From an uncultured Actinomycetota bacterium (GTDB lineage Bacteria > Actinomycetota > Actinomycetes > Propionibacteriales > Nocardioidaceae), in contig CAWERI010000008.1 of the NCBI GenBank assembly GCA_963811515.1, positions 120,471-184,470 on the forward strand: a stretch of DNA of 64,000 nucleotides. Direction: 5' to 3'. Under the pieces are notes generated by a model. That model was not told the origin of the DNA. It ran no database searches and was given only the letters and a program-made list of their open reading frames with translations. Shown here one piece after another: positions 11,486 to 27,762 of the stretch (positions are counted from its first letter, which is position 1; each line of letters opens with the position of its first letter). Made by a program: the position numbers and the translations under genes.

Positions 11486-12049
11486 ATGCGACTGTTTGCT
11501 GCGATCGTGCCGCCGCGCCCCGTCCTCGACGAGGTCCGGGCCGTGGTCGACTCGGTCCGTCCGACGGCCGCGGAGCCGGCCCCGAAGCGGGGCCTGTTCT
11601 CCCGGCTCGGCGGTCGCGGGGCGCGTCGTCGAGGAGCAGACCAACGACGAGCTGACGCAGCCGCCGGTCGACCTGATGTACCTCCCGCTGACCGGCTTCG
11701 GCAACGTCACCCTGGGCGACTCGGTCCACCTGGCCAAGGCGCTGCGCACCGAGGCCCTCACCTGGGCCCCGCCCACCCTGCACATCGCCGGCGGCACCGC
11801 GCTGGAGTTCAAGGGCGACGAGTCGGTGTGGGCGAAGCTCGACGGCGACATCGACGCGCTGAACACCATCGGCCGCGGGGTCCCGCAGATCGTGCAGCGG
11901 CTCGGCTTCTTCGTGGACCGCCGCCAGTTCCGCCCGTGGCTCGAGGTCGGCACGATCACCGACGCCACCACGGCGCCGTACCTGCAGGCCGTCGTGGACG
12001 CGCTGGAGGCCTTCCACGGCCGGTCCTGGAGATCGAGCGATCTCGCTGA
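11486..12049 (+). CDS. 2H phosphoesterase / 2'-5' RNA ligase (LigT/ThpR-like), one frameshift
   Basis: MRLFAAIVPP N-terminus and two H-x-T/S-like segments (PLTGFGNVTL, PTLHIAGGTA). The 3' end is uncertain, between 12049 and 12123. Confidence 0.5.
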   Translation: MRLFAAIVPPRPVLDEVRAVVDSVRPTAAEPAPKRGLFSRLGGRGARRRGADQRRADAAAGRPDVPPADRLRQRHPGRLGPPGQGAAHRGPHLGPAHPAHRRRHRAGVQGRRVGVGEARRRHRRAEHHRPRGPADRAAARLLRGPPPVPPVARGRHDHRRHHGAVPAGRRGRAGGLPRPVLEIERSR

Positions 12050-12119
12050 TGAAGCGCCTGCCCGACGCAGGGGCCGGACGCCTTCGAGGAGATGGAGCGG
12101 ATGCCGCTCGCTCCCGCCG

Positions 12120-14487
12120 CTAGACCGACGGGGCGACGCCGGGCCGGGTCGCGCTGGGGGTCGGCCGGCAGCGCGCGGTTCTCCGCGATCACCTTGACCA
12201 GCTGGTCGAGCGGCATCGGCCGGTGCATCAGGTAGCCCTGGGCGAACGGCGCGTGCACGTGGTCGCGCAGGTGGTCGAGCTGGCTGGCCCGCTCGATGCC
12301 CTCGACGACCACGTCGAGGCCCAGCGCCTGGCCCATCATCGTGATCGAGCACAGCAGCGCGCACGAGCGCTCGTCGCGGTCGATGCTCTCCGAGAACGAC
12401 AGGTCGGTCTTGATGATCTGCACCGGCATGTCCTGCAGGTAGCCGATCGAGGAGAAGCCGACCCCGAAGTCGTCGATGGCGAACGGCACGCCGCGGTCGG
12501 CCAGCGTGGTCATCGCGCTCATCGAGGCCGGGTCGTTCCCGATGCCGTCGCGCTCGGTGATCTCCAGGACCAGGTCGGCGCCGTCCATCTTGGCCATCGC
12601 GCGCTCGACCTTGGCGACGAAGTCCGGCTCGCGCAGCTGCTTGGCGGAGATGTTCACGCTCACGTTGAAGTCGCCGCCGGCGGCCTGCAGCGATCACCGC
12701 GGCGTCGCGGGCGGCCTGCTCGAGCACGACGTCGCCGAGCGCGACCACCAGGCCGGTCTCCTCCGCGACCCGGATGAACACGTCCGGGGGTACGTCGACG
12801 CCGTTGGACTTCCAGCGCGCCAGCGCCTCGACGCCGGTGATGTAGCCGGTGGAGGCGCGGACGACGGGCTGGTAGACGAGGGTGAGGTCGCCGGCCGCCA
12901 CGGAGGCGCGCAGCGACTCCACGAGCTCGAGGCGCTGGAGGCGCGAGCGGCCGATCGCGCGTTCGTACTCGACCCACTGGTTCTTGCCGCGCGACTTGGC
13001 CTCGTACATCGCCAGGTCGGCGTTGCGCAGCATGCTCTCGGCGGTCTCGCTGCTGTCGCCGAACGCCACGCCGATGCTGGCGGAGAGCGCGAGCTGGTGG
13101 CCGGCGACGTGCGCGCCGCGGGAGAGCGCGGCGAGGATCCGGTCGCAGGCGGTGCTGACCTCGGGCGGGTGCACGTCCTCGAGCAGCAGCGCGAACTCGT
13201 CGCCGCCGAGCCGGGCCACGGTGTCGCTCTGCCGCACGCAGCTCGGTGAGCCGCTGGGCCACGTCGATGAGCACCGCGTCGCCGGCGGCGTGGCCGAAGC
13301 GGTCGTTGACCGGCTTGAAGCCGTCGAGGTCGACGAAGAGCAGCGCGATCCGGTTGCCGCGCCGCCGCGACATCTGCAGCGCGTGCTCGACCCGGTCGAG
13401 CAGCAGGCCGCGGTTGGGCAGGTTGGTGAGCAGGTCGTGGCGGGCGAGGTGGGTCATGTCCTCGGTCAGCCGGAGCCGGGCGAAGGCGTCGGAGGAGACC
13501 GCGACCATCGCCTCGAGGGCCTGCTGGTCGGCGGTGGTCGTCGACCGGGCCCGGTGCTGGCCGGGCGCCACGATCCAGCGGTCCCGCTGGCCGTCGCGCA
13601 GCTGGGCGCCGACCTCGTGGGCGCCGGGCGGCGTGGACCGGACCTCCACCTGCTTGATCCGCAGCAGCCGGCGGGCGTCGTCGATGAGCGCGTCGACGAC
13701 CTGGCGGGTGTCGGAGAGCGTCTGGGCCCGGACGGCCGCGTCGAAGAGCACGCTGAGCCGGCGGGCGTTCTCGCTGCCGCGGTTGACCGCGCGGGTGGCG
13801 ACGAGCAGGGTCGCCAGCGGGACGGCGAGCAGCAGGAGGGTGTACCACTCCAGGCTCGCGAGCGACCACGGCGCCGAGGTAGCCCAGGGAGTCGAAGGGC
13901 ACGAAGCAGGCGATCGCGAAGAGCGTGCCGCGCTGCACCAGGTGACCCGCGGACCGGGGTGTCGGTCTCGATGGCGACCGAGACCGCGGAGAGCAGGAAG
14001 TCGGTGGCGAAGTAGCAGCGCCGCCGCCAGGGCCACGGCGAGCAGCTCGCGGAAGCGTGCCCTCGCCGTCGGGCCGCGGACCTGGGCGACGACCGCCGCG
14101 GCGACCGCCGCCGCCGAGGATCCCGACGCCGATGTTGAACAGCTTGACGGCCGGCCGCTTGTCGGTGGTGATCTGGGTGACCAGCACGCCCAGCGACCAG
14201 ATCAGCAGGGCCTCGTAGGGGCTGTCCAGCGTGCAGAGCAGGAACATCAGGATGCTGGAGTCGAAGCCGACCTCGATGCCGCCCTCGCCGCTGTCCAGGA
14301 CCATCGGGAACTTCGCGATGATCACGATCAGCGGGACGCAGACAGGGCCAGCCCGTCCATCTGGACGCCGTCCTGCGAACAGCCGGACCGTCGACCAGAC
14401 GACCACGCAGCAGCCCCGACGAGCGAAGACGCCGAGGTCGAACCAGCGGCTGCGCGACGAGATCAGCGCAGCGAGCGGTCGAGCCAT
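12120..14487 (-). CDS. Membrane sensor - GGDEF - EAL c-di-GMP signalling protein, several frameshifts
   Basis: N-terminal polytopic membrane region (FPMVLDSGEGGIEVGFDSSILMFLLC). GGDEF domain with RHDLLTNLPNRGLL, LLFVDLDGFKPVND and RLGGDEFALLLE. EAL domain with LVYQPVV, FAIDDFGVGFSS and EGIERASQ. There is a GGAGGA RBS at the 14487 start. Confidence 0.7.
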
Positions 14488-15368: not shown

Positions 15369-15581
15369 ATGTCCAACCGTGTCTACCGCGTCACCGAGAT
15401 CGTCGGCACCTCGCCCGACGGCATCGACCAGGCCATCCGCAACGGCATCGAGCGGGCGTCCCAGACGCTGCGTCACCTCGACTGGTTCGAGGTCACCCAG
15501 GTCCGCGGCCAGGTCAAGGACAACACCGTCGAGCACTTCCAGGTCGGCCTCAAGCTCGGGTTCCGCCTCGAGGACGACTGA
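15369..15581 (+). CDS. Dodecin (flavin-sequestering protein)
   Basis: Intact 70 aa: MSNRVYRVTEIVGTSPDGIDQAIRNGIERASQTLRHLDWFEVTQVRGQV. Confidence 0.8.
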   Translation: MSNRVYRVTEIVGTSPDGIDQAIRNGIERASQTLRHLDWFEVTQVRGQVKDNTVEHFQVGLKLGFRLEDD

Positions 15582-15629: not shown

Positions 15630-16337
15630 ATGAGCAGATCGGTACTCGTCACCGGAGGCAACCGGGGCATCGGCCGGCCGATCGCAGAGGCGTTCGTCGC
15701 CAACGGGGACCAGGTGGCCATCACCTACCGCAGCGGCGAGCCGCCCGAGGGCGTGCTGGCGGTCAGGTGCGACGTCACCGACGCCGACGTCCGTCGAGGC
15801 GGCGTTCACCGAGATCGAGGCCGCGCACGGCCCGGTCGAGGTCCTCGTCGCCAACGCCGGCATCACCGCGGACACCCTGGTGCTGCGGATGAGCGAGGAC
15901 GACTGGTCGCGGGTCATCGACACGAACCTCACCGGCTCCTTCCGGGTCGCCAAGCGGGCCGCCAAGGGCATGCTCCGGCTGCGCCGCGGCCGGCTGATCT
16001 TCATCTCCTCGGTCGTCGGCCTGCTCGGCTCCGCCGGGCAGGTCAACTACGCGGCCAGCAAGGCCGGCCTCGTCGGCATGGCCCGCTCGCTGGCCCGCGA
16101 GCTGGGCAGCCGCTCGATCACCGCCAACGTGGTGGCGCCCGGGTTCGTCGAGACCGAGATGACCGCCGTGCTGCCCGAGGAGACCCAGGCGAAGTACAAG
16201 GAGCAGATCCCGCTCGGCCGCTACGCCTCGCACCGAGGAGGTCGCCTCGGTGGTGCAGTGGCTCGGCCTCCGACGGCGCGGCCTACGTCACCGGGGCGGT
16301 CATCCCGGTCGACGGCGGCCTCGGCATGGGGCACTGA
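15630..16337 (+). CDS. fabG: 3-oxoacyl-ACP reductase FabG (MabA-like), frameshifted
   Basis: [61 protein letters not shown] and [13 protein letters not shown] are spread over three frames. Confidence 0.75.
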
Positions 16338-16401
16338 GCCGGACCCGCACGGCACGATCCTGCACGCGACCAGCACCGAACACACGAAGGAGCACGACGG
16401 C

Positions 16402-17176
16402 ATGGGCATTCTCGAGGGCAAGCGGATCCTGGTCGCGGGCGTCACGATGGACAGCTCGATCGGCTTCGCGGTCGCACGCGTCGCGCAGGAGCAGGGCGCG
16501 ACCGTCGTGGTGTCGAACTTCGGCCGCGCGCTCGGCATCACCAAGCGCATCGTCAACCGGCTGCCCGCAGCCGGCACCGGTCATCGAGCTCGACGTCACC
16601 GACCCCGAGCACCTGGAGCGGCTGCCGGACCTGCGTGCGCGAGCACGTCGACGGGCTCGACGGCGTCGTGCACTCGGTGGCCTACGGCAACCCCGAGACG
16701 CTGCTCGGCGGCAAGTTCCTCAGGGCCCCTGGGAGGACGTCGCCCAGGCCGTGCAGGTCTCGGCGTACTCCCTGATGTCGCTGTCGCACCGCCTGCCTGC
16801 CGCTGATGTGCGACGGGCGGCTCGGTGGTCGGGATGACCTTCGACGCGACGGTCGCCTGGCCGGCGTACGACTGGATGGGCGTGGCCAAGGCCGGCCTGG
16901 AGTCCTGCTCGCGCTACCTGGCCCGCGACCTCGGCCCGCAGGGCGTCCGGGTCAACCTGGTGTCCGCCGGACCGCTGAAGACGCTGGCCGCGAAGGCGAT
17001 CCCGGGCTTCGAGGAGCTCGAGTCGATGTGGAGCGACCGGTCGCCGCTGGGCTGGGACGAGAAGGACACCGAGCCGACCGCGCGAGGCGGTCGTCGCGCT
17101 GCTCAGCGACTTCTTCCCGGCCACCACCGGCGAGATCGTGCACGTCGACGGCGGCTACCACGCGATGGGGGCGTGA
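16402..17176 (+). CDS. inhA: Enoyl-ACP reductase (NADH), InhA/FabI-like, frameshifted
   Basis: [67 protein letters not shown] and [14 protein letters not shown] align along the length of M. tuberculosis InhA. AAGGAG RBS. Three frame breaks. Confidence 0.75.
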
Positions 17177-17209: not shown

Positions 17210-18903
17210 GTGACTTCCGCACTCGTCGAGCTCCGGGTCCTCGAAGGACCGAACCTCTACTTCCCGCGCGCCGCGATCAAGCTGACCCTGGACCTGACCC
17301 AGCTGATCGACGCGCAGGAGTGGGTGGCGCATGCGGTTCGCCTCCCGGATCGGCCTGCGCAAGGCCCGTCCCGGCGAGCCGGGCAGCGGGTTCCGGCAGC
17401 GGTTCGCGGCCCGGGCCATCGAGCGGCTGGTGCGCCAGATCGCGGCGGAGGCCGGCACCACCCGGCTCGCGCGTCCGGGTCCGGCCGACCAACGACGTGC
17501 ACCAGATCGTGGTGGCGTACCCCTGGCGCAACCGGACCCGCGCCCAGGCGCTCGGCCGGGCCGTCGCCGAGGTGCTCGACTCGCTGCTCAGCCCGGACCT
17601 CGAGGAGCTGGTCAGCCACGCCGCCGAGTCGGTGCGCGCCTCCGAGCGCCGGCCCCGGGCCCACCACGCTGCGCCCGCGGGTGCCGATCGTCGCGGTCAC
17701 CGGCACCAACGGCAAGACCACGACGTCGCGGATGGTCGCGCACATCGCCCGCACGCACGGCCTGCACGTCGGCTGGTCGAGCACCGACGGCATCTACGTC
17801 GACGGCGAGCTGGTCGAGCCCGGCGACTACTCCGGCCCCTCGGGCGCCGGCCGGGTGCTGGCCCACAAGCAGGTGCAGCTCGCGGTCACCGAGACCGCCC
17901 GCGGCGGCATCCTGCTCAAGGGCATCGGGCTGACCCACAACGACGTGTCGGTGTTCACCAACGTCTCCGCGGACCACCTCGGGCTGCACGGCATCGACAC
18001 CCTCGACCAGCTCGCCGAGGTCAAGGGCGTCGTGCCCCGGATCACCAAGGCCCGACGGCTGGGCGGTGCTGAACGCCGACGACCCGCGGGTCTACGCGAC
18101 GCGGACGTCGATCAAGGCGAAGCCGTGGGTGTTCTCCCGCGACCCCGACTCCCCGGCGATCCGGGAGACGCTGTCGCGACGGCGGCCGCGCGACCACCGT
18201 CATCGACGGCTGGCTCTCGGTGCTCTACCCCGACAGCGACGCCGACCCGCTGGTCGAGGTCGTCGACATCCCGATGACGCTGGCCGGGCTGTCCCGCTTC
18301 AACGTCGAGAACGCGCTCGGTGCCGCGTCGGCGGCGCTGGCGGTCGGGCTGCCCCGCGAGGCCGTGGTCGAGGGGCTGACGTCGTTCCGCCCCGACCCGG
18401 CGCACAACCCGGGCCGGATGAACTTCTTCTCCCGCGACGACGTCAGCGTGGTGATCGACCTCGCGCACAACGAGGCCGGCCTCGAGGCGCTGCTGGAGAT
18501 CATGAACGGCGTACGTCGCCCGGCGCCCGGCTGCTGCTCGGCCTCGGCGCGGTGGGGGACCGGCAGGACGACCTCGTCGACCGGCTCGGGGAGATGGGCG
18601 CCCGCGACGCCGACGTCGTGGTGGTCGCGCACAAGGAGAAGTACCTGCGCGGCCGCACGACCGAGGAGCTCGACGCGCTGTTCCGGTCCGGTGCCGCGCG
18701 GGTCGGGCGTCGAGGACGTCCCGTCGTACCCCACGGAGGTCGAGGGCTGGCCGCGCTGGTCGAGCAGGCCGGGCCCGGGGACGTCGTCGCGCTGATGTGC
18801 CACGAGGACCGCCAGGGCGTCTACGACTGGCTGGCGGACCACGGGCTTCACGATCGACGCCCCCGAGACGCTGCGCGACAAGGTGCGCGCGGCGTCGGCT
18901 CAG
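17210..18903 (+). CDS. Cyanophycin-synthetase-like protein with CphA N domain plus Mur-ligase M domain and no ATP-grasp domain, heavily frameshifted
   Basis: N-terminal VELRVLEGPNLYFPRAAIKLTLDL and VHQIVVAYPWRNRTRAQALGRAVAEVL parallel the N domain of the bona fide CphA in this window. They are followed directly by IVAVTGTNGKTTTSRM, GGILLKGIGLTHNDVSVFTNVSADHLGLHGIDTLDQLAEVKG, LNADDP and IDLAHNEAGLEALLE. No ATP-grasp segment lies between them. At least four frame breaks. Confidence 0.6.
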
Positions 18904-20153
18904 GCCTGAGGCCGGCCGACCAGCTCCGGGTAGTACTCGCGGGGACGGCCGTCCCGGTCGCGCAGCATCCGGAGCTTGCTGGTCGGCTGCTCGATGAGCC
19001 GGAAGCTGACCCAGCCGACGGCGACCGAGCCGAGCAGCACGATGGTCACCGTGAGCGGCAGCGCCTGGTCGGCGCGGCCGATCAGGCCCCAGTGCTGGAA
19101 CAGCATCATCAGCGGCTCGTGCCACATGTAGGTGCTGTAGCTGATCAGGCCGAGCCAGGTGATCCCGGGCCAGGACAGCATCCGGGACCACAGCTGCCCG
19201 GGGGCGCCGAGCACGGTGCTGGCCATCAGCAGGAACCAGCCGACGGCGGCGAAGTCGTGGAACACGACCTGGCCCCAGGTGCCCGGGTCCGACAGCAGCG
19301 CTCCGCCGAGCACGACGCCCACGCCGAGCCAGCGCGACCAGGGCCGGGGCGGCGCCGGGGAACAGCGGCCGGCCCTGGCGGGCGGCGGCGACCACGGCGA
19401 GCAGCATGCCGGCGCCGAAGGCACCGAAGCGGGCCTGCGGGCCGAAGTACGCCGGCCAGTTGTCGAACGGGATGTCGAGGACCAGGAAGGCCACGGAGTT
19501 CCAGACGAACGGCGCGACGGTCAGCACGGCGGCCCCGGTCGGCGAGCAGCTGCACGCGGCGGCGGCGCGAGCCGATGCCGCGCGCAGGCGCGCACCGCGA
19601 GCGGGCCGAGCAGCACCAGGACGCCGTAGAAGATCACCTCGAGGCTCATCGACCAGGTCGGGCCCACGGTGTAGAAGATCCGCTCCCGGTCGAAGACCTG
19701 CAGGAACAGCAGGTGCTCGACCAGGTCGAGCCAGTCGCCGGGGAGCGCGGGGTTGCGGATCGCCCACACGACGGTGACGCCGATCCAGTAGAGCGGCAGG
19801 ATCCGGACCGCCCGTCGGAACAGGAACTGTCCGGCGGGGCGCGCCGGCGTGCGGTCCAGCGCCGCGCGGGCGTAGGACAGGGTCAGCAGGTACGACGACA
19901 TCAGGAACAGGATGTCGACGGTCTCGAAGCGGGCGAGGGCGCCCAGCACCGGGTTGAGCGTGCGGCCGCTCTGGGCGGCGTACTGGAAGACGTGGAAGAC
20001 GACGATGGTCAGGCCCACGAGCCCGCGGTAGCCCTCGAGCTCACGGGCGCGCCCGCGGCTCGGTGCGCCCTCGGGGGACCGGAGCGGGCCGGAGCCGGAT
20101 GCGGAGTCGGTGGGGGTGACGTCGGCGGGACGGTCGGTGCTCAGCGTGGTCAT
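18900..20153 (-). CDS. Acyltransferase family 3 (OatA/OpgC-like membrane O-acyltransferase), frameshifted
   Basis: MTTLSTDRP start, ELEGYRGLVGLTIVVFHVF, multiple TM segments, and C-terminal ISYSTYMWHEPLMMLF. Its start codon overlaps the upstream GT2 stop (ATGA). Confidence 0.65.
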
Positions 20154-22462
20154 GCGCTCACCTCCTGGTGGTCGCGTGCGGTGTCGGTGGTGCGGTCGGT
20201 CGTGCCGGCGGAGCGCGGGGTCACGTTCCACTGGGCCTCCCCGACCAGCTCCTTGACCTGGGCGATCCGGCCGATGATGTTCTTCCACTCGGTGTAGACC
20301 AGCGAGGACACCAGCAGGTGGCTCCAGAACCAGGAGGAGCGCTCCCGGATCTCGGGCACGGCCAGCCGCCAGGCGAACAGCGTCTGCGCCGGGCCCACGG
20401 CCAGCGTGAACAGCGTGGTCAGCAGCAGCGCGGGGGCCAGCCAGTTCAGCTGGGTGATCCCGCCGTCGCGGTAGGCCGTGTAGGCGAGCACCGGGAACAT
20501 CTGCAGCGACAGCCAGGGGTAGATCTCGCGCCAGCCCAGCAGGAACGCCAGCCCGCCCTTCTGGCGGACGCTCAGGTGCGGCGAGGCGATGGTCAGCCGC
20601 AGGTGCTTGCGGGAGACCTGGAACCAGCCCTGGGCCCAGCGGGCGCGCTGCTTCCACAGCGACGTCACGTTGGTCGGGGCGAGCTCGTAGGAGATCAGGG
20701 CCGGGTCGGAGGCGATCTTCGCGCCGGCGGCGAGCACCCGCAGGGTGGAGTCGATGTCCTCGGTCAGCATCGAGCCGTGCATCCGGGTCTCGGCCAGCAG
20801 GCTGGTGCGCCAGTAGCCGTTGGAGCCGCCGAAGAGGCCGAAGCCGTGCAGCGCCGCGCGGCCGGGGTGGCTGACGGCGTAGATCGACTCGAACTCGACC
20901 GCGACCGTGCGGGCCACCAGGGACGCGTCCCCGTTGCGGATCACGCAGTGGCCCTGCACGACGTCGTACCCGTTGGACAGCCAGCGCCACGCGCGCTTGA
21001 AGGCGCCCGGCTCGGGGTGGTGGTCGGCGTCGAACATGCCGACGAACTCACCGGTGACGTGGCTCATCGCCGCGTTCACGTTCTGCGCCTTCGAGGTGCT
21101 GTTCTCGACCTTGAGCGGCAGGATCCGCGGGTCGCGGCGGGCCATCTCCCGCAGCTCGTCCTCGACGGCCATCGGGTGCGGCGTGTTGTAGGCGACCAGG
21201 ATCTGGAACGGGCCGGGGTAGTCGACCCGCTGGAAGGCCTCGACGGTGTCGACGATCGTGGCGGCCTCGTTGGGGAGGTACGCCGCGATCACCGCCGTCG
21301 CGCCGGGGTGCGGGGCTCCGGGCTCGTCCGGCGGCCGCTGCGGGTCGAGGGCGTAGAACCCCTCGAGCCAGATCGCGCCGGCGGTGACCAGCAGCGCGGC
21401 CATCACCACCCAGTAGGCGATCCCGGAGACGTCCCAGCCGATCGCGCCGAGGGCGAAGTAGCCAGGAACGGCAGGCCCACGCCCAGGACCAGCGTGAGCA
21501 GGAACTGGGCGGGCAGCCGCAGCCGGTTGCCCACGGTGGCGGCGGACCGGCGGATGCGGCCCGGCCCGCGACGGTCGAGGTCGGTGGCCGGCTCGAGGGC
21601 CGGGGTCCACTCGACGGGCAGCAGGTCGAGGTGGTCGCCGGCCACGCGGACGGCCGTCAGGGCGCGGTCGCGCAGCTGCTCGCCGCTGGAGGCGGCGGCG
21701 AAGGGGGACCACCCGGTCACCGGGGTCACCCGGACGACGTCCTCGTTGCCGAGGGCGAACCGGGTCGCGGCGATCCGGCGGGCCAGGGCGCCGAGCCGCC
21801 GCTCGACCTCCTGGGGGCCGGACTCCGGCAGCAGCACGAGCAGCCGGCCGTCGCGGTCGAGGCCGGCCCGCTCCAGCGCCTCGGGGGAGTCGGCGATCAG
21901 CTCGGTGACCTGGGTCGCGATCTGGGTCGCGGCGCCGCCACCGAAGCGGTCGAGCAGCCGCGGCATCTCCTGGAACTCGACGATCGCCGAGCCCGCCGTT
22001 GCGGCGGGCGCGGTGGCCGCGCTCGAGCTCGCGGCCGGCCTCGTCGACGAAGGTGGTCTCGGCGAGCAGGCCGGTGCGCAGGTCACGGCTGACGAGGGAG
22101 GCGGGCACCGGGGGGCGCGCGGTCTTGGAGCGCACCCGGGCGGCGAGCTCGACGCCGGAGACGGTCGGGCGGCAGGCAGTCGTCGGCGCCCAGCTCCAGC
22201 CCGGTCAGCACCTCGTGCTCGTCGCCGCTGGTGAGCAGCAGCACCGGGACGGTGCGGCCGGGACGCGCCTCGCGCAGCCGCCGCAGCAGGTCGAGCCCGT
22301 CGGGGCCGTCGCCGCCCACGGAGGCGACGACGACGTCGGGGCGCAGCCGCGAGAAGGCCGCGATCGGGTGCTCGTCGGGACGCGGGCCCCGACGACGAAG
22401 CCGGCGGCCCGGAGGGCCGCCCGGGCCTCGTCGGCGAAGGGGCTGTCGTCGACCAGCAGCAC
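20150..22462 (-). CDS. Receiver domain - degenerate GGDEF - processive family-2 glycosyltransferase (cellulose/PNAG-synthase-like), frameshifted
   Basis: GTG start VLLVDDSPFADEARAAL and GGDGPDGLDLLRRLREARPGRTVPVLLLTSGDEHE form the REC domain. ERAGLDRDGRLLVLLPESGPQEVERRLGALARRIAATRF ... VTPVTGW aligns to a GGDEF domain with the GG(D/E)EF motif lost. The TM region is followed by a GT2 core with DADH, TED (LTEDID) and QRARW motifs. Confidence 0.65.
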
Positions 22463-22557: not shown

Positions 22558-23978
22558 ATGGACGTTCGGGAAGGTGGTCGCGGCGCGGCCCGCAGCGGGC
22601 TCGGTCGTACGGCGCTGGCCGTGGCGGTCGTCTGGTGCTGTCTCGTGGCCGCGTGCACGTCGACCACCCGGGAGGGCGTCCCGCTCCGCACCTGAGGTGC
22701 GGGCCTGGGTCACCACGGCGTCCGGCAGCCAGAAGCTGTCCGACCGTGGTCCGGTCCCGTCCTTCGCCGGAGGATCCGGCGAACCCGACATCGTCGTCGA
22801 GAACGGACGACGCTACCAGCAGTTCTTCGGGGTCGGCGCATCGATCACGGGGTCCTCGGCCGTGTTGCTCGACACGTTGCCGGACGACGTGCGCTCACGT
22901 GTGATGCGCGACATCTTCCAACCAGGGCAGGGGATCGGGCTCTCCGTGCTGCGCCAGCCGCTGGGCGGCAACGACTTCTCGACCAGCGACTTCTCCTTCA
23001 CCCCGGGTCGTGACGAGGACCACGTGCTGCCGCTGCTGACGGAGGCCGCCCGGCTCGACCCGTCACTGGCGGTGGTGCTCAGCCCGTGGAGCGCGCCGGC
23101 CTCGATGAAGACCAGCGGGTCGCTGGTCGGCGGGTCGCTGCGCCCCGAGGACGCCGGTGCCTACGCCGACTACCTGGTCGGGGCGGCGCGCGCCTACCTC
23201 GACGCCGGCGTCCCCGTGCGCGGGCTGACCGTGCAGAACGAGCCGAGCTACTCGCCGCCGTCGTACGCCGGGATGACGCTGGACACCGAGCAGCAGCGCA
23301 CCCTGCTGCGCGACCACGTCGCGCCGGCGCTGCAGCGGGCCGGCCTGCGGCTGCACCTGTGGGCGCTCGACGACAACTTCGACCGCTGGCCGGACGCCGA
23401 CGCGCTGCTCTCCGACCCGGCCACCCGGCGGGCGGTGTACGGCGTCGCGTTCCACTGCTACCGCGGGGACGTGTCGGCGCTCCGCGAGCTGCGGGACCGG
23501 CACCCGGGACTCGCGGTCGTCGGTCAGCGAGTGCAGCGGGGGAGCCTGGTCGCAGGGCTTCGCGCGCGAGCTGCGCTACGAGGCGCACACGATGCTCGTC
23601 GGCGCGGTCCGCAACGGTGCGGCCTGGCTGGTGAAGTGGAACCTCGCCCTCGACCCGCAGGGCGGGCCGACCAACGGCGGCTGCCAGGACTGCCGCGGCC
23701 TGGTCACGGTGGACCCGGCCACCGGCACGGTCACGCCCGGCCCGACGTACTACGCGTTCGGGCACCTGGGGCGGTTCGTGACCCCGGGTGCGCGGGTGAT
23801 CGGCGCCACGGCCCGGACCGGGTCGCGGCTGGACACCGTCGCGTTCCGGAACCCGGACGGCTCCCACGTGCTGGTCGTCTTCAACGACGGCAGCACGCGG
23901 GACGTCCGGGTCGACACCGGCGACCGGAGCTTCGGCTACCGGCTGCCGGCGGGGGCGCTGGCGACGTTCACGTGGTGA
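22558..23978 (+). CDS. Glycoside hydrolase family 30 lipoprotein, frameshifted
   Basis: Lipoprotein signal ALAVAVVWCCLVAAC. FFGVGASITGSSAVLL, LTVQNEPSY (acid/base Glu region) and VTVDPATGTVTPGPTYYAFGHLGRF (C-terminal beta-sandwich) are spread over three frames. Confidence 0.6.
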
Positions 23979-26725
23979 AGTCGGGGTCGCCGACCGGGCC
24001 GTCGGCGCTCGTCCCGGAGCCGGCCTGGGCCTGGTTGGACCAGTTCTCCAGCTCGGCCATCACCGTGGGGTGCTTGTCGACGCAGACCACCACGAGGTCG
24101 CCGGGGTTGGCGCGCGACATCGCGTGCCGGACCGCCTCGATCTCGTCGAGGATGATCTCCAGCTGCTTGCAGCGCGCGCCCGCCTCCCGGCTGGACCGGA
24201 CGCCCTCGGCGACCAGCGCCGCGGTCTCGCCACGCTTGCGGCCGCGCAGCGACACGTCCTCGCGGACCACCACGACGTCGAAGTGCTGGGCGGCGATGGC
24301 GCCGAGCTCGCGCATGTCGTCGTCGCGCCGGTCGCCGGCGGTGGCGATCACGCCGATCCGGGACGGACGGCCCAGCTCGCTGGTGGTCGCCATGCTCTCC
24401 CCGACCCGGTCCACGAAGTCGCCGAGCGCCTTCATGCCCGGGGCGTTGTGGCAGTAGTCGACGATGACCTGCACGCCGTTGACCTCGACCTCGTTGAGCC
24501 GGCCGGGGGAGAGGTAGTAGCTCGTGGAGAAGGTCCGCAGGCCCTGCCGGATGTCGTGCAGCGGTGCACCGGCGGCGAACGCCGCGGCAGCCGCGGCCAG
24601 GGCGTTCTGCACGTTCATCCGGGCCTTGCCGCCGAACGTCGCGGGCAGCAGGTGGGTCCAGGCGAGCTGCATCTCGCGGCGACCGTGCTTGACCACGATC
24701 ATCTCGCCGCGGTCGCTGGGCTCGAGGACCAGCGCCTTGCCGCCGCGGCGGCAGTGCGCGTCGATCATGTCGCGCTCCTCCGAGCCGGGCTCGGACATCG
24801 AGAACCAGACGACCTGCCCGGAGCACTTGCGGCGCATCGCGCGGACCAGCGGGTCGTCGGCGTTCAGCACGGCGTGGCCGTCGCGCGGGACCGCCTCGAC
24901 GATCACCGCCTTGACGTCGGCGAGCTGCTCGACGGTGTCGATGCCGCGCAGGCCGAGGTGGTCGGGCTGCACGTTGAGGACCACCGCGACGTCGTTGCGC
25001 TCGTAGCCGAGGCCCTCGCGCAGGATGCCGCCGCGGGCGACCTCGAAGACCCCGAAGTCCACGCGCGGGTTCTGCAGCACCATCCGGGCGGACTTCGGCC
25101 CGGACGCGTCGGAGCGGATCACCAGGCGCTCGTCGATGACGACGCCGTCGGTCGAGGTCATGCCGACCTTGCGGCCCATGCCCTTGAAGATGTGCGAGAT
25201 CATCCGCGAGGTCGTCGTCTTGCCGTTGGTGCCGGTGACGGCCACGATCGGGATCCGGCTCGGGGCACCGGGCGGGAACAGCATGTCCACGACGGGCTTG
25301 GAGATGAACTGCGGCTCGCCGATGGTCGGGTGCGTGTGCATCCGGAAGCCCGGGGCGGCGTTCACCTCGCAGATCGCGCCGCCGGTCTCGCGGACCGGCT
25401 CGGTGATGTCGGGGCAGATGAAGTCGATGCCGGCGATGTCGAGGCCGACCATCCGGGCGGCCTCCTCGGCGATCTCGACGTTCTCGGGGTGCGCCTCGAA
25501 GGTGCGGTCGATCGAGATGCCGCCGGTCGACATGTTGCCGGTCAGGGTGAGCTTGACCGTCTCGCCCGCGGGCGGCACGTCGCCGAGCTTGTAGCCCTGG
25601 TCGGCGAGCAGCGCGACCGCGGCGTCGTCGACCTTGATCCGGGTGAGCACCTTCTCGTGGCCGACGCCGCGGCGCGGGTCCGCGTTGGTCAGCTCGACGA
25701 GGTCCTCGATGCTGGTCTGGCCGTCGCCGATCACGTGCGCGGGCACCCGCTCGGCGACCGCGGCGAGCCGGCCGTCGATGATCAGGCAGCGGTAGTCGCG
25801 GCCGGTGATGTAGGACTCCACGATCACGATGCCGCGACGGGACTGGTCCTTGGCGATCGGGAACGCCTCGCGGACGTCGTCGGCGTCCTTGAGGTCCAGG
25901 CAGACGCCCCGGCCGTGGTTGCCGTCGAGCGGCTTGACGACGACCGGGAAGCCGATCCGCTCCGCGACGGTGGCGGCCTGGTCGGCGGTGCGCACGGACT
26001 CCTGCTTGGGCACCGGGAGGCCGGCGGCACCGAGCAGCCGGGTGGTGAGGTCCTTGTCGGAGGCCACGTCGACGGCGATGGCGCTGGTGGCCGACGTCAT
26101 CGTCGCGCGGATCCGCTTCTGGTGGACGCCCTGGCCGAGCTGCACCAGCGAGTGCTGGTTGAGCCGGATCCAGGGGATGTCGCGGGAGACGGCCTCGTCG
26201 ATGATCGCCTGCGTCGAGGGGCCGAACGACGTGCGCTCGGCGCGCAGGATGAAGGCCTCGCGCTCCTTGTCCCAGTCGAACTCCGGGTCGGCCTGGACGA
26301 GGTGGTTCACCAGGCGTACGGCGAGCCGGGCCGCCGCGATGCCGACCTGCTCGTCGACGTACCCGTAGACGATGTTGTAGCGGCCCTTCTGGCCCTTGAC
26401 CGAGCGGGTCTTGCCGCGCCGGATGTCGTGGCCGACCTCCTGCTGCAGCGCCAGGGCGGCGTGCTCGGCGACGTGGCCGAGCCAGGTGCCCTCGTTGAGC
26501 CGCTCCACGAAGCCGCCGCGCCGGCCGCGCGAGCAGGAGTGCTCCCGCAGGCCGGGCAGCAGCTGCAGCAGGTTGTCGGTGAACCCGCGCCAGCGTGTTG
26601 GTCGGGAACTCCTCGAGCGACCCGAGGTCCACGACGAGGTGGATCGCCTTGTCGTAGGACCAGACGTTCGCCCCGCGGTAGACGCGGGTCTCGAGGATCG
26701 ACAGGTCGGGGGACGGGGTGCTCAT
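23968..26725 (-). CDS. cphA: Cyanophycin synthetase CphA (N domain, ATP-grasp G domain, Mur-ligase M domain), one frameshift
   Basis: An 846-aa uninterrupted frame carries the ATP-grasp region (GFPVVVKPLDGNHGRGV) and the M domain (IVAVTGTNGKTTTSRM, VLNVQPDHLG, VIVDYCHNAPG). About 70 further N-terminal residues (MSTPSPDLSILETRVYRGANVWSYDKAIHLVVDLGSL) are in an adjacent frame, with a single break near 26575. Confidence 0.85.
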
Positions 26726-27729
26726 GTGTGATCTCCTTCGGCCGACTGGCGGGCACGGCGGCGCCGCAGCACGGTGGGTGAGATGTCGCCCGCGGCGATG
26801 TCCCGAGCCAACCGTTTCAGGTCGCGTCCCGCAACCGCGAGCTCCTCGGCCTCGCCGGGGTCGACGACCGGCGCCTGGCGCACCAGCGTCTTCTCGGTCA
26901 GGTTGAACACCGAGCCGGCCGGCAGCACGTGCAGGACGACGCCGGAGGCGAGCAGGGGAGCGGTACGACGGGCCTCGTGCGCGTTCGACACCACGTTGCG
27001 GCCGTCGAACACGGTCACCACGCCGCGGCCCACGACGCGCATGATCTCCGCGCCGTCCTCCTCGGTGATCACGGCGCCGGTGTCCTCGTCGACGCCGATG
27101 CCGAGCAGGCCCGGGCTCTGGGCGACGAGCATCAGCAGCCGGCCGTAGCGGTTGCGCTGCCCGAAGTGCTGGTCGATGACCACGTCGCGGATCAGCCCGA
27201 GGCCGGCCGCGAGCTGGGTCATCCGCTGCTTGGGGGTCGAGCCGCCGGTGCCGAAGGCGACCATGTGCGAGGACTGGATGCTGGCGCCGGCGCTGGTGCC
27301 GCCGACGACGACCCCGCGGGCGTGGGCGGCCTTGATGGCCTCGCCGAACGCGGTGCCGTTGACGATCGCGGACAGCTTGAGCTGGTTGCCGCCGGTCATG
27401 AAGATGCCGGTGACGTCGTCGAGCAGGCCGACGACGTCGGGGTCCTCGGCCTCCTCGCGGCTCTCCGGCCGTGCGGCGACGACGTCGGCCGCGCCGAGCT
27501 TGCGGAACAGGGCGTCGTACACCTCGACGACCTCGGGTCCCAGCGAGCTCGCGGTCGGGATGACGGCGATCTTGGCGTCGGCGCCGCCGGCGAGGGAGAC
27601 GAAGGTCTTGAGCACCGTCCGGCGGCCGAGCTTGTCCTCGGCACCGCCGATGGCGATGAGTGGTCCGGGTCCTGAGGGGGAGTCCTGTCTGTCGATGTCG
27701 GCTTCGCGGGCATCTGGACCGTTCGGCAT
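26722..27729 (-). CDS. cphB: Cyanophycinase CphB (peptidase S51)
   Basis: Intact frame from MPNGPDARE. PLIAIGGAEDK, the catalytic Ser region GGTSAGASI, and QHFGQRNRYGRL are present. The stop overlaps the cphA start (ATGA). Confidence 0.85.
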   Translation of the reverse strand: MPNGPDAREADIDRQDSPSGPGPLIAIGGAEDKLGRRTVLKTFVSLAGGADAKIAVIPTASSLGPEVVEVYDALFRKLGAADVVAARPESREEAEDPDVVGLLDDVTGIFMTGGNQLKLSAIVNGTAFGEAIKAAHARGVVVGGTSAGASIQSSHMVAFGTGGSTPKQRMTQLAAGLGLIRDVVIDQHFGQRNRYGRLLMLVAQSPGLLGIGVDEDTGAVITEEDGAEIMRVVGRGVVTVFDGRNVVSNAHEARRTAPLLASGVVLHVLPAGSVFNLTEKTLVRQAPVVDPGEAEELAVAGRDLKRLARDIAAGDISPTVLRRRRARQSAEGDHT

Positions 27730-27762
27730 GCAGCGCAGCCTACGGGGTGCCAGAGTTGGCCC

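Follow-up and report, generated by a model that had tools for sequence, protein, structure and literature searches.

A CphA-related Mur ligase without an ATP-grasp domain, encoded near cyanophycin genes in a Nocardioidaceae bacterium and in other phyla

The DNA considered here, referred to as the window, is a 64-kb stretch of contig CAWERI010000008.1 from an uncultured Actinomycetota bacterium whose closest relatives are Nocardioides and other Nocardioidaceae. On its forward strand, from a GTG start at 17210 to a TGA stop at 18907-18909, lies a gene whose product, of about 562 residues once nine frameshifts are bridged, consists of a CphA-type N domain fused straight to a complete CphA-type Mur-ligase M domain (the N+M protein). 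Within the CphA/Mur-ligase lineage it combines a domain composition not described so far with a conserved cyanophycin context. In the cyanophycin synthetase CphA1 the ATP-grasp (G) domain adds aspartate at the C terminus of the chain, and the M domain phosphorylates the β-carboxylate of the new aspartate and ligates arginine to it; N and M together thus form the structural unit that carries out the second of these half-reactions. On balance it is probably an intact, functional stand-alone CphA relative, an ATP-dependent side-chain amino-acid ligase that would work together with CphA1 and the cyanophycinase CphB in cyanophycin metabolism.

Domain composition and active site

Only two Pfam domains were recognised in the N+M protein, Mur_ligase_M at residues 168-378 (72 bits) and Mur_ligase_C at residues 405-535 (50 bits), both above their cut-offs, and there was no Pfam match to ATP-grasp. 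The NCBIfam model of cyanophycin synthetase, TIGR02068, was matched with an E value of 1e-112, the match being confined to profile positions 476-852, which correspond to the M domain, and its score of 377.6 bits lying below the curated cut-off of 850. Other NCBIfam matches were to MurE models (about 1e-31) and MurT (1e-13), with 110 bits for the best Mur model against a cut-off of 476; no curated NCBIfam family was matched above its cut-off, and no NCBIfam model covers the N+M family. By sequence, the closest relatives of solved structure were those of CphA1, with five PDB sequences at E 1e-130 to 1e-118. The hallmarks of the Mur ligase superfamily are present, namely both Pfam domains, the P-loop, the Mg-binding glutamate, the DHLG motif and the conserved lysine.

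An earlier note, made from the letters of this DNA alone, had described an N and an M domain without ATP-grasp and had reckoned with a G domain that correction of the sequence might bring to light in the gap. Neither the stitched protein nor the intact orthologues contain one, and since the latter, 553-574 residues long, extend over 98-100% of the stitched sequence, no ATP-grasp segment has dropped out and a domain hidden in the gap is ruled out. The P-loop, IVAVTGTNGKTTTSRM, begins about 15 residues after the last helix of the N domain. In the AlphaFold model, computed from an alignment of 26 diverse family members (predicted local distance difference test, pLDDT, 92.7; predicted template-modelling score, pTM, 0.90), the beta-alpha N domain (residues 1-143) continues into the P-loop strand (residues 159-163). 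To judge from the TIGR02068 match of the M domain and the hhalign match of the N domain given below, a chance origin of the architecture is excluded.

The conservation of the M domain was assessed on 60 reference columns, defined as those at least 90% conserved among 18 CphA1 M domains, of which 51 are kept in the N+M subfamily. The retained residues include the P-loop G164-T170 (GTNGKTT, nucleotides 17702-17722) with K168 and T169, the Mg-binding E227, ARGG, N250, D254-H255 of the DHLG motif (residues 254-257), K271, NADD, D415/H418/N419, GDR at 448-450 and R479; in the lid, D415, H418, N419, G448, D449, R450, Y477 and R479 are invariant. The ATP and Mg ligands of TeCphA1, K499, T500, T522 and E558 (PMC9427784), all map to retained columns. 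Differences specific to the subfamily are few, comprising leucine for the CphA1 arginine of GGILR, an invariant tyrosine in YLRGR and the glutamate of AHNE. On the evidence of these columns the M domain, about 37-40% identical to that of the neighbouring CphA1, looks active and CphA-like.

It is very unlikely that the protein is a non-catalytic partner, that is, a scaffold or regulatory subunit binding cyanophycin or CphA1 without ligation. The ATP, Mg and catalytic motifs of M are all invariant in orthologues down to 36% identity, and Mcore and Mlid are both complete. Such a role would have a precedent in CphA2, whose inactive and truncated M domain shows that CphA domains can turn structural (PMC10273328), and it would agree with the lack of a catalytic zinc site in the N domain.

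The N region was not matched by the Pfam N-domain model PF18921 (Cyanophycin_syn), even at E ≤ 10 over its 157 residues; the neighbouring CphA, used as control, gave E 4e-42. With BLASTP only a short match was obtained, residues 4-47 aligning with residues 9-52 of the CphA of a relative, L002 (34% identity, E 4e-4). This match covers the first of two sequence blocks that the earlier note had aligned with CphA, and the second lies inside the hhalign alignment of 25 family N regions with 16 CphA1 N regions (98.4% probability, E 5e-15, 158 columns). An AlphaFold model of the N region alone had a pLDDT of 95.3, and when it was compared with the PDB by Foldseek the top 15 matches were all CphA1 or CphA2 (E 6e-5 to 5e-2, query TM score 0.53-0.63), the matches below them being clearly unrelated (TM about 0.2-0.3). 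Because of the profile match and the Foldseek matches, the N region is homologous to the CphA N domain and not to Mur-ligase domain 1. The generic Mur-ligase extension held out as an alternative in the earlier note is therefore not what was found, even though the Pfam model itself misses the region.

A zinc site, Cx19HxxEH, makes most CphA1 N domains endo-cyanophycinases and is found in about 83% of CphA1 (PMC9262961). It is absent from the N domain of the N+M protein, RAIER standing in place of HxxEH in the orthologue P0001; the Cys, His, Glu and His columns are kept in 14 of 14 sampled CphA1 and are variable in the 25 family members. As part of the reading favoured here, the N domain is probably not a peptidase. 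Its only family-invariant residues are L11, G13 and N15, in the (E)xRxLxGPN loop (L-x-G-P-N, residues 11-15, nucleotides 17240-17254), which presumably corresponds to the GPNYW stretch of SuCphA1, where Y14 and I17 would lie. In CphA1 the N-domain loop that touches M includes these two residues (PMC9262961).

MurT is likewise a Mur-ligase-derived protein without domain 1. The N+M protein had no Pfam match to DUF1727 or a zinc ribbon and scored 49.9 bits against the 800-bit MurT cut-off, so that a MurT-like identity, already dismissed in the earlier note, was rejected; no GatD/GATase partner was present among the called genes near the N+M gene in L001, L002 and L084. Compared with MurC-F, Mpl and FolC, the protein carries a CphA N domain in place of the UDP-binding domain 1, and its scores are far below all Mur cut-offs.

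Integrity of the reading frame

All three forward frames from the GTG at 17210 hold pieces of the N+M protein. The frameshift sites were mapped by dynamic programming over three frames against the intact, 564-residue orthologue P0001, with which the frame-corrected protein shares 537 of 564 residues (95%). Plain tblastn was dropped for this purpose, since the high G+C content (72% in the window) made for long and misleading alignments in wrong frames. Nine frame changes were located, at about 17330, 17472, 17647, 18053, 18177, 18517, 18705, 18742 and 18843. One extra C or G is present at each of 17330, 17472, 17647, 18053, 18177, 18705 and 18843, and the sites at 18517 and 18742 represent a net change of -1; none of the ten segments contains an in-frame stop codon. 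The earlier note had thus been right about the start and about a broken frame; its end at 18903 fell short of the stop codon, and its "four-plus" frameshifts proved to be nine.

Nine frameshifts within 1.7 kb might be real and mark a pseudogene decaying in this organism, and the indel density is in fact higher at the N+M gene and fabG-inhA than at cphA, the 16-18 kb bin having the window maximum of 11 phase switches. This explanation is nevertheless extremely improbable and was rejected. The ratio of non-synonymous to synonymous substitution rates (dN/dS) of the frame-corrected gene against its closest orthologue, in L001, is 0.13, by which measure the gene is under purifying selection, and no segment carries a stop. 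Against L001, a contig 90% identical to the window, 66 gap openings were counted between 13689 and 22299 (8.6 kb), mostly single inserted G or C, and these also break the dodecin region, fabG, the enoyl reductase gene, the acyltransferase gene and the glycosyltransferase gene; fabG and the enoyl reductase are normally required for fatty-acid synthesis. In the window cphA the first 45-70 codons or so are in another frame owing to an indel near 26510-26590.

When codon-position G+C was followed with a hidden Markov model, the coding phase switched about 109 times on the same strand across the 64 kb, a count that includes some ordinary gene junctions. The switches occur in nearly every 2-kb bin at an uneven density, with nearly none at 24-26 kb. 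The window resembles unpolished long-read sequence. Given the similar indels throughout the window, the 95% identity to an intact orthologue and the dN/dS of 0.13, errors of sequencing or assembly, and not gene decay, explain the breaks best.

Gene neighbourhood and related families

The N+M gene follows genes for FabG and a FabI/InhA-type enoyl-acyl-carrier-protein reductase, whose L002 orthologues pass the NCBIfam cut-offs of TIGR01830 and NF005908. The reductase stop codon, at 17174-17176, leaves a spacer of 33 nt, one less than the earlier note had given when it named these co-oriented neighbours correctly. The full cphA-cphB pair that the same note had placed about 5 kb away lies 5.06 kb downstream with both genes on the reverse strand; their L002 orthologues score 1177 bits against TIGR02068 (cut-off 850) and 240 bits against TIGR02069 (cut-off 126.6), and the CphA carries Cx19HxxEH.

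Synteny was examined in 15 informative loci; besides that of the window, these came from scanning genomes and from looking up identical proteins. The N+M-only homologues which the earlier note had thought worth seeking were found, and in 14 of the 15 loci the N+M gene stands tail-to-tail with a full-length cphA1. Beyond cphA1 follows cphB in 13 of these 14 convergent loci, the sequence of L005 ending first. The stop-to-stop gap between the N+M gene and cphA1 ranges from 0.1 to 7.4 kb, being about 85-390 bp in L012, L015, L013, L010, L022 and L084, 0.9 kb in L002, L007 and L008, and 4-7 kb in L004, L006, L009, L005 and the window. The convergent loci belong to Nocardioidaceae-like organisms (L002, window), Kribbella, Terrabacter, metagenome-assembled genomes (MAGs) of Actinomycetota, three Chloroflexota (the MAG L012, Thermomicrobiales L015 and Chloroflexia L022), whose orthologues are just 36-44% identical, and the metagenome contig L084.

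The genes upstream differ between phyla. A fabG-fabI pair was seen only in actinobacterial loci with upstream genes detected (8 of 9; none in L010); outside Actinomycetota the place is taken by ParB (L015) or by a divergent M20 peptidase (L012, L022, L084/L085). On this comparison of loci it is cphA1, followed by cphB, that stays next to the gene from phylum to phylum, and the fabG-fabI link is lineage-specific, for which reason fabG-inhA was discarded as a functional clue. The earlier note had called the position after fabG-inhA unusual; it is conserved in Actinomycetota and no oddity of this genome. The conserved adjacency to cphA1 (and cphB) constitutes the main evidence for the putative cyanophycin-related role.

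The same comparison bears on the proposal that the protein is a Mur-type ligase whose substrate has no relation to cyanophycin, for instance a carboxylate that is lipid-linked or belongs to the cell envelope, and that the closeness of cphA-cphB is inherited gene order. In its favour are the co-oriented position directly after fabG-fabI in Actinomycetota, the acyltransferase_3 and GT2-like genes that follow in the window, locus L014, which has no cphA nearby, and a G-less gene of another type (type c, below) with neither cphA nor cphB within 8 kb on a Bacteroidota-like contig. We consider it unlikely, since the link to fabG-fabI is absent outside Actinomycetota and that to cphA1, with cphB, persists in Chloroflexota despite other upstream genes; the N domain is a CphA-type domain and not the UDP-binding domain 1 of MurC-F, the M domain is far nearer to CphA than to any Mur enzyme, and L002, a close relative, lacks the acyltransferase and glycosyltransferase genes.

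The association with cphA1 is shared by further G-less proteins. The N+M gene belongs to a very large database family carrying generic names, and by representative search and sequence inspection two more kinds were distinguished beside the subfamily of the window (type a). Type b proteins (e.g. P0203), of about 560-600 residues, carry RRLTGPN at the N terminus and lack the zinc site. Their genes follow cphA1 immediately, on its own strand, in five loci: four are from Gammaproteobacteria and Myxococcota (Luteimonas, a Lysobacterales MAG, a Steroidobacteraceae MAG and Plesiocystis pacifica) and one is a metagenome contig, the order in Luteimonas being cphB-cphA1-N+M. Type c proteins have a canonical CphA1 N domain, with a PF18921 match and HxxEH, joined to M without ATP-grasp. 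An example is P0275 (611 residues), identical on two independently assembled contigs (L088/L089, 8001-9836); no cphA or cphB was found within 8 kb of its gene, on a Bacteroidota-like contig with a CHU_C protein nearby.

The M domains were placed in a neighbour-joining tree with midpoint rooting and without bootstrap, where types a and b cluster together apart from CphA1 and type c is scattered inside CphA1. The mean M-domain identity is 45% within type a, 37% between a and b, 37% between a and CphA1 and 41% within CphA1. Type b thus resembles type a in its N+M architecture, its grouping apart from CphA1 and its clustering with cphA1, and it is equally uncharacterised; it differs in being only about 37% identical, in a longer N-M linker, in its same-strand and not convergent position downstream of cphA1, and in keeping the GGILR arginine of CphA1, which in type a is mostly leucine.

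Three betaproteobacterial loci (L071, L073 and L077; Nitrosomonas europaea, Pseudoduganella and Azonexus) have two tandem cphA genes. The M domain of the first aligns over just 250-275 residues or so, and the N domain of the second is matched weakly (L073) or not at all (L071, L077).

Coordinates of the features are collected in Table 1. The divergent M20 metallopeptidase was observed in three independent non-actinobacterial clusters, its closest model being the "glutamate carboxypeptidase" PRK06133, below cut-off. It may complete a four-gene cyanophycin cluster as a hydrolase, or may remove what the N+M protein adds. Between the N+M gene and cphA of the window (18900-22135, reverse strand, and 22750-23978, forward strand) there are three genes: an acyltransferase_3 gene that overlaps the N+M stop by about 10 nt, a GT2-like glycosyltransferase gene and a frameshifted glycoside-hydrolase-like reading frame, possibly GH30, the last two assigned by eye from the translation. 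Since the relative L002 has a single ABC permease gene at this place, the three are taken as a lineage-specific insertion. The order in the window (15369-15578, forward strand) and in the L001 and L002 equivalents is DUF3099-dodecin-fabG-fabI/inhA-N+M, with an Rv1486c-like gene beyond cphB. This order resembles the fabG1-inhA-hemZ-Rv1486c region of Mycobacterium tuberculosis, except that the cyanophycin genes sit here between inhA and the Rv1486c-like gene.

Table 1. Positions of the N+M gene, its parts and neighbouring or related genes (window coordinates unless a locus is given)
Feature	Position	Strand	Basis
Whole N+M gene	17210..18909	+	Frameshift-aware alignment to P0001; dN/dS against L001 orthologue
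CphA-type N domain, residues 1 to about 150	17210..17662	+	hhalign, AlphaFold N-only model, Foldseek, motif columns
M-domain core (Mur_ligase_M)	17678..18408	+	PF08245, E 7e-20; TIGR02068 positions 476-852; invariant columns
M-domain lid (Mur_ligase_C) with DxAHNE, GDR, YLRGR	18427..18818	+	PF02875, E 8e-13; invariant residues
Nine frameshift sites	17330..18843	+	Alignment to P0001; window-wide phase switches
fabG (about 15630-16337) and fabI/inhA-type enoyl-ACP reductase gene (about 16397-17176), both frameshifted	15630..17176	+	tblastn with L002 orthologues; indel map
Full-length cphA1 (N+G+M), convergent with N+M gene	23968..26725	-	L002 orthologue, TIGR02068; has Cx19HxxEH
cphB (cyanophycinase, peptidase S51), upstream of and co-oriented with cphA, as in an operon	about 26728..27735	-	tblastn, 91% identity to L002 CphB
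Divergent M20 peptidase genes	L012:4265-5725, L022:8658-9852, L084:4098-5336, L085:3964-5202	-	PRK06133 best match
Type b N+M genes	L033:11360-13273, L039:about 11840-13030, L051:about 12004-13200, L063:about 11902-13110, L086:2159-3904	same as cphA1	P0203-like

Putative function and relation to known cyanophycin enzymes

In the mechanism proposed for the N+M protein as a side-chain ligase, a CphA N domain devoid of peptidase activity would be packed against a catalytically complete M domain. Using ATP, the enzyme would phosphorylate the free β-carboxylate of an aspartate that terminates a cyanophycin chain or fragment, and would then ligate an amino acid, arginine or a different one, to the activated aspartate. 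As the ATP-grasp G domain of about 320 residues is missing, the poly-aspartate backbone could not be extended by this protein, which would perform only the second half-reaction, in trans. The earlier note had put forward a modifying or repair function of this kind on a cyanophycin-like polymer; such a function is plausible and agrees with the synteny.

Several points weigh against this proposal. What the enzyme acts on, which amino acid it adds and what part it plays in the cell, be it side-chain addition in trans, repair or alternative decoration, we infer from sequence, structural models and local synteny, and the link to cphA1 is one of local gene order. The neighbouring CphA1 has a complete M domain of its own and passes TIGR02068; a second arginine-adding activity looks redundant beside it, so that the true substrate or amino acid may differ, and because of this redundancy alternative decoration, capping, repair and priming are kept as options. 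The CphA1 arginine of ARGGILR, otherwise invariant, is leucine in 71% of the N+M subfamily, PF18921 misses the N domain, and the CphA1 zinc site is absent. Locus L014 (Sphaerobacteraceae), without cphA within 10 kb downstream, is the sole exception among the 15 loci. Finally, in Actinomycetota the spacers of 8-150 nt suggest that the gene is probably co-transcribed with fabG-fabI, which could mean another pathway.

Priming deserves separate mention. The N+M protein might be a primer or dipeptide synthetase, joining arginine to the β-carboxylate of free aspartate or to very short oligomers and so making β-Asp-Arg units or primers that would speed the slow first steps of CphA1. It has the same catalytic equipment as the M domain of CphA1 and is tightly clustered with cphA1. 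Unprimed CphA1 works very slowly, and the route by which it makes primers itself needs the zinc site of the N domain (PMC9262961), and CphA2 shows that β-Asp-Arg can serve as a substrate of polymerisation (PMC10273328). We hold this role to be improbable all the same: the neighbouring CphA1 has an intact Cx19HxxEH and should therefore make its own primers, the retention of a polymer-binding N domain favours a polymeric over a monomeric substrate, and CphA2 was not seen in the N+M loci examined.

Among the known enzymes the N+M protein is most readily compared with CphA1 (PDB 7LG5, 7LGM, 7WAC), with which it shares the N fold, the GPN loop, the Mcore and Mlid (the 51 of 60 columns) and the association with cphB. 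It differs from CphA1 in having no G domain and no Cx19HxxEH, in an N domain too diverged for PF18921, and in falling outside the CphA1 cluster of the M-domain tree. CphA2 (PDB 7TA5, 8FXH), which is among the structural matches, is likewise a reduced CphA paralogue with a non-catalytic N domain and one catalytic domain. It is, however, the mirror image, since its G domain is active and kept and its M domain is truncated and inactive (PMC10273328), whereas the N+M protein has a complete M and no G.

In public databases the N+M proteins are called "Mur ligase family protein" (WP_129987727.1 of Nocardioides iriomotensis, an intact orthologue; UniProt A0A4Q5IZ76), and the automated annotation of the Joint Genome Institute (JGI) names them "cyanophycin synthetase", which is wrong. 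The earlier note knew of no described G-less CphA, and none was found in the full-text-searchable literature, including the cyanophycin papers since 2024; subscription papers lie largely outside this literature, so that an earlier mention is possible. There was no mention of one in the paper on the CphA1 N domain (PMC9262961), the TeCphA1 structure paper (PMC9427784), the CphA2 paper or the 2023 bioinformatics survey of cyanophycin gene clusters. The "CphA3" of the literature is an Aeromonas β-lactamase and irrelevant here.

In the current view one enzyme is enough to make cyanophycin, CphA1, or CphA2 where dipeptides are recycled. A widespread, strongly conserved and catalytically intact half-enzyme kept beside cphA1-cphB in several phyla suggests an undescribed step, for which side-chain addition in trans, alternative decoration, capping, repair and priming are candidates. 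The N+M protein also bears on the assembly of the three-domain CphA1, described by its authors as three enzymes in one (PMC9262961). Being small, confidently predicted and available under public accessions, it is readily testable, and it might find use as a tool for modified cyanophycins. It is tempting to speculate, though we do so tentatively and with some doubt, that types a and b form an unrecognised third class beside CphA1 and CphA2, dedicated to decorating, capping or repairing cyanophycin as side-chain ligases acting in trans; they could also represent the N+M module that turned into CphA1 when an ATP-grasp domain was inserted. If they do form such a class, they might use an amino acid other than arginine, so that the polymer of many Actinomycetota, Chloroflexota, Gammaproteobacteria and Myxococcota would differ in its chemistry or its regulation.

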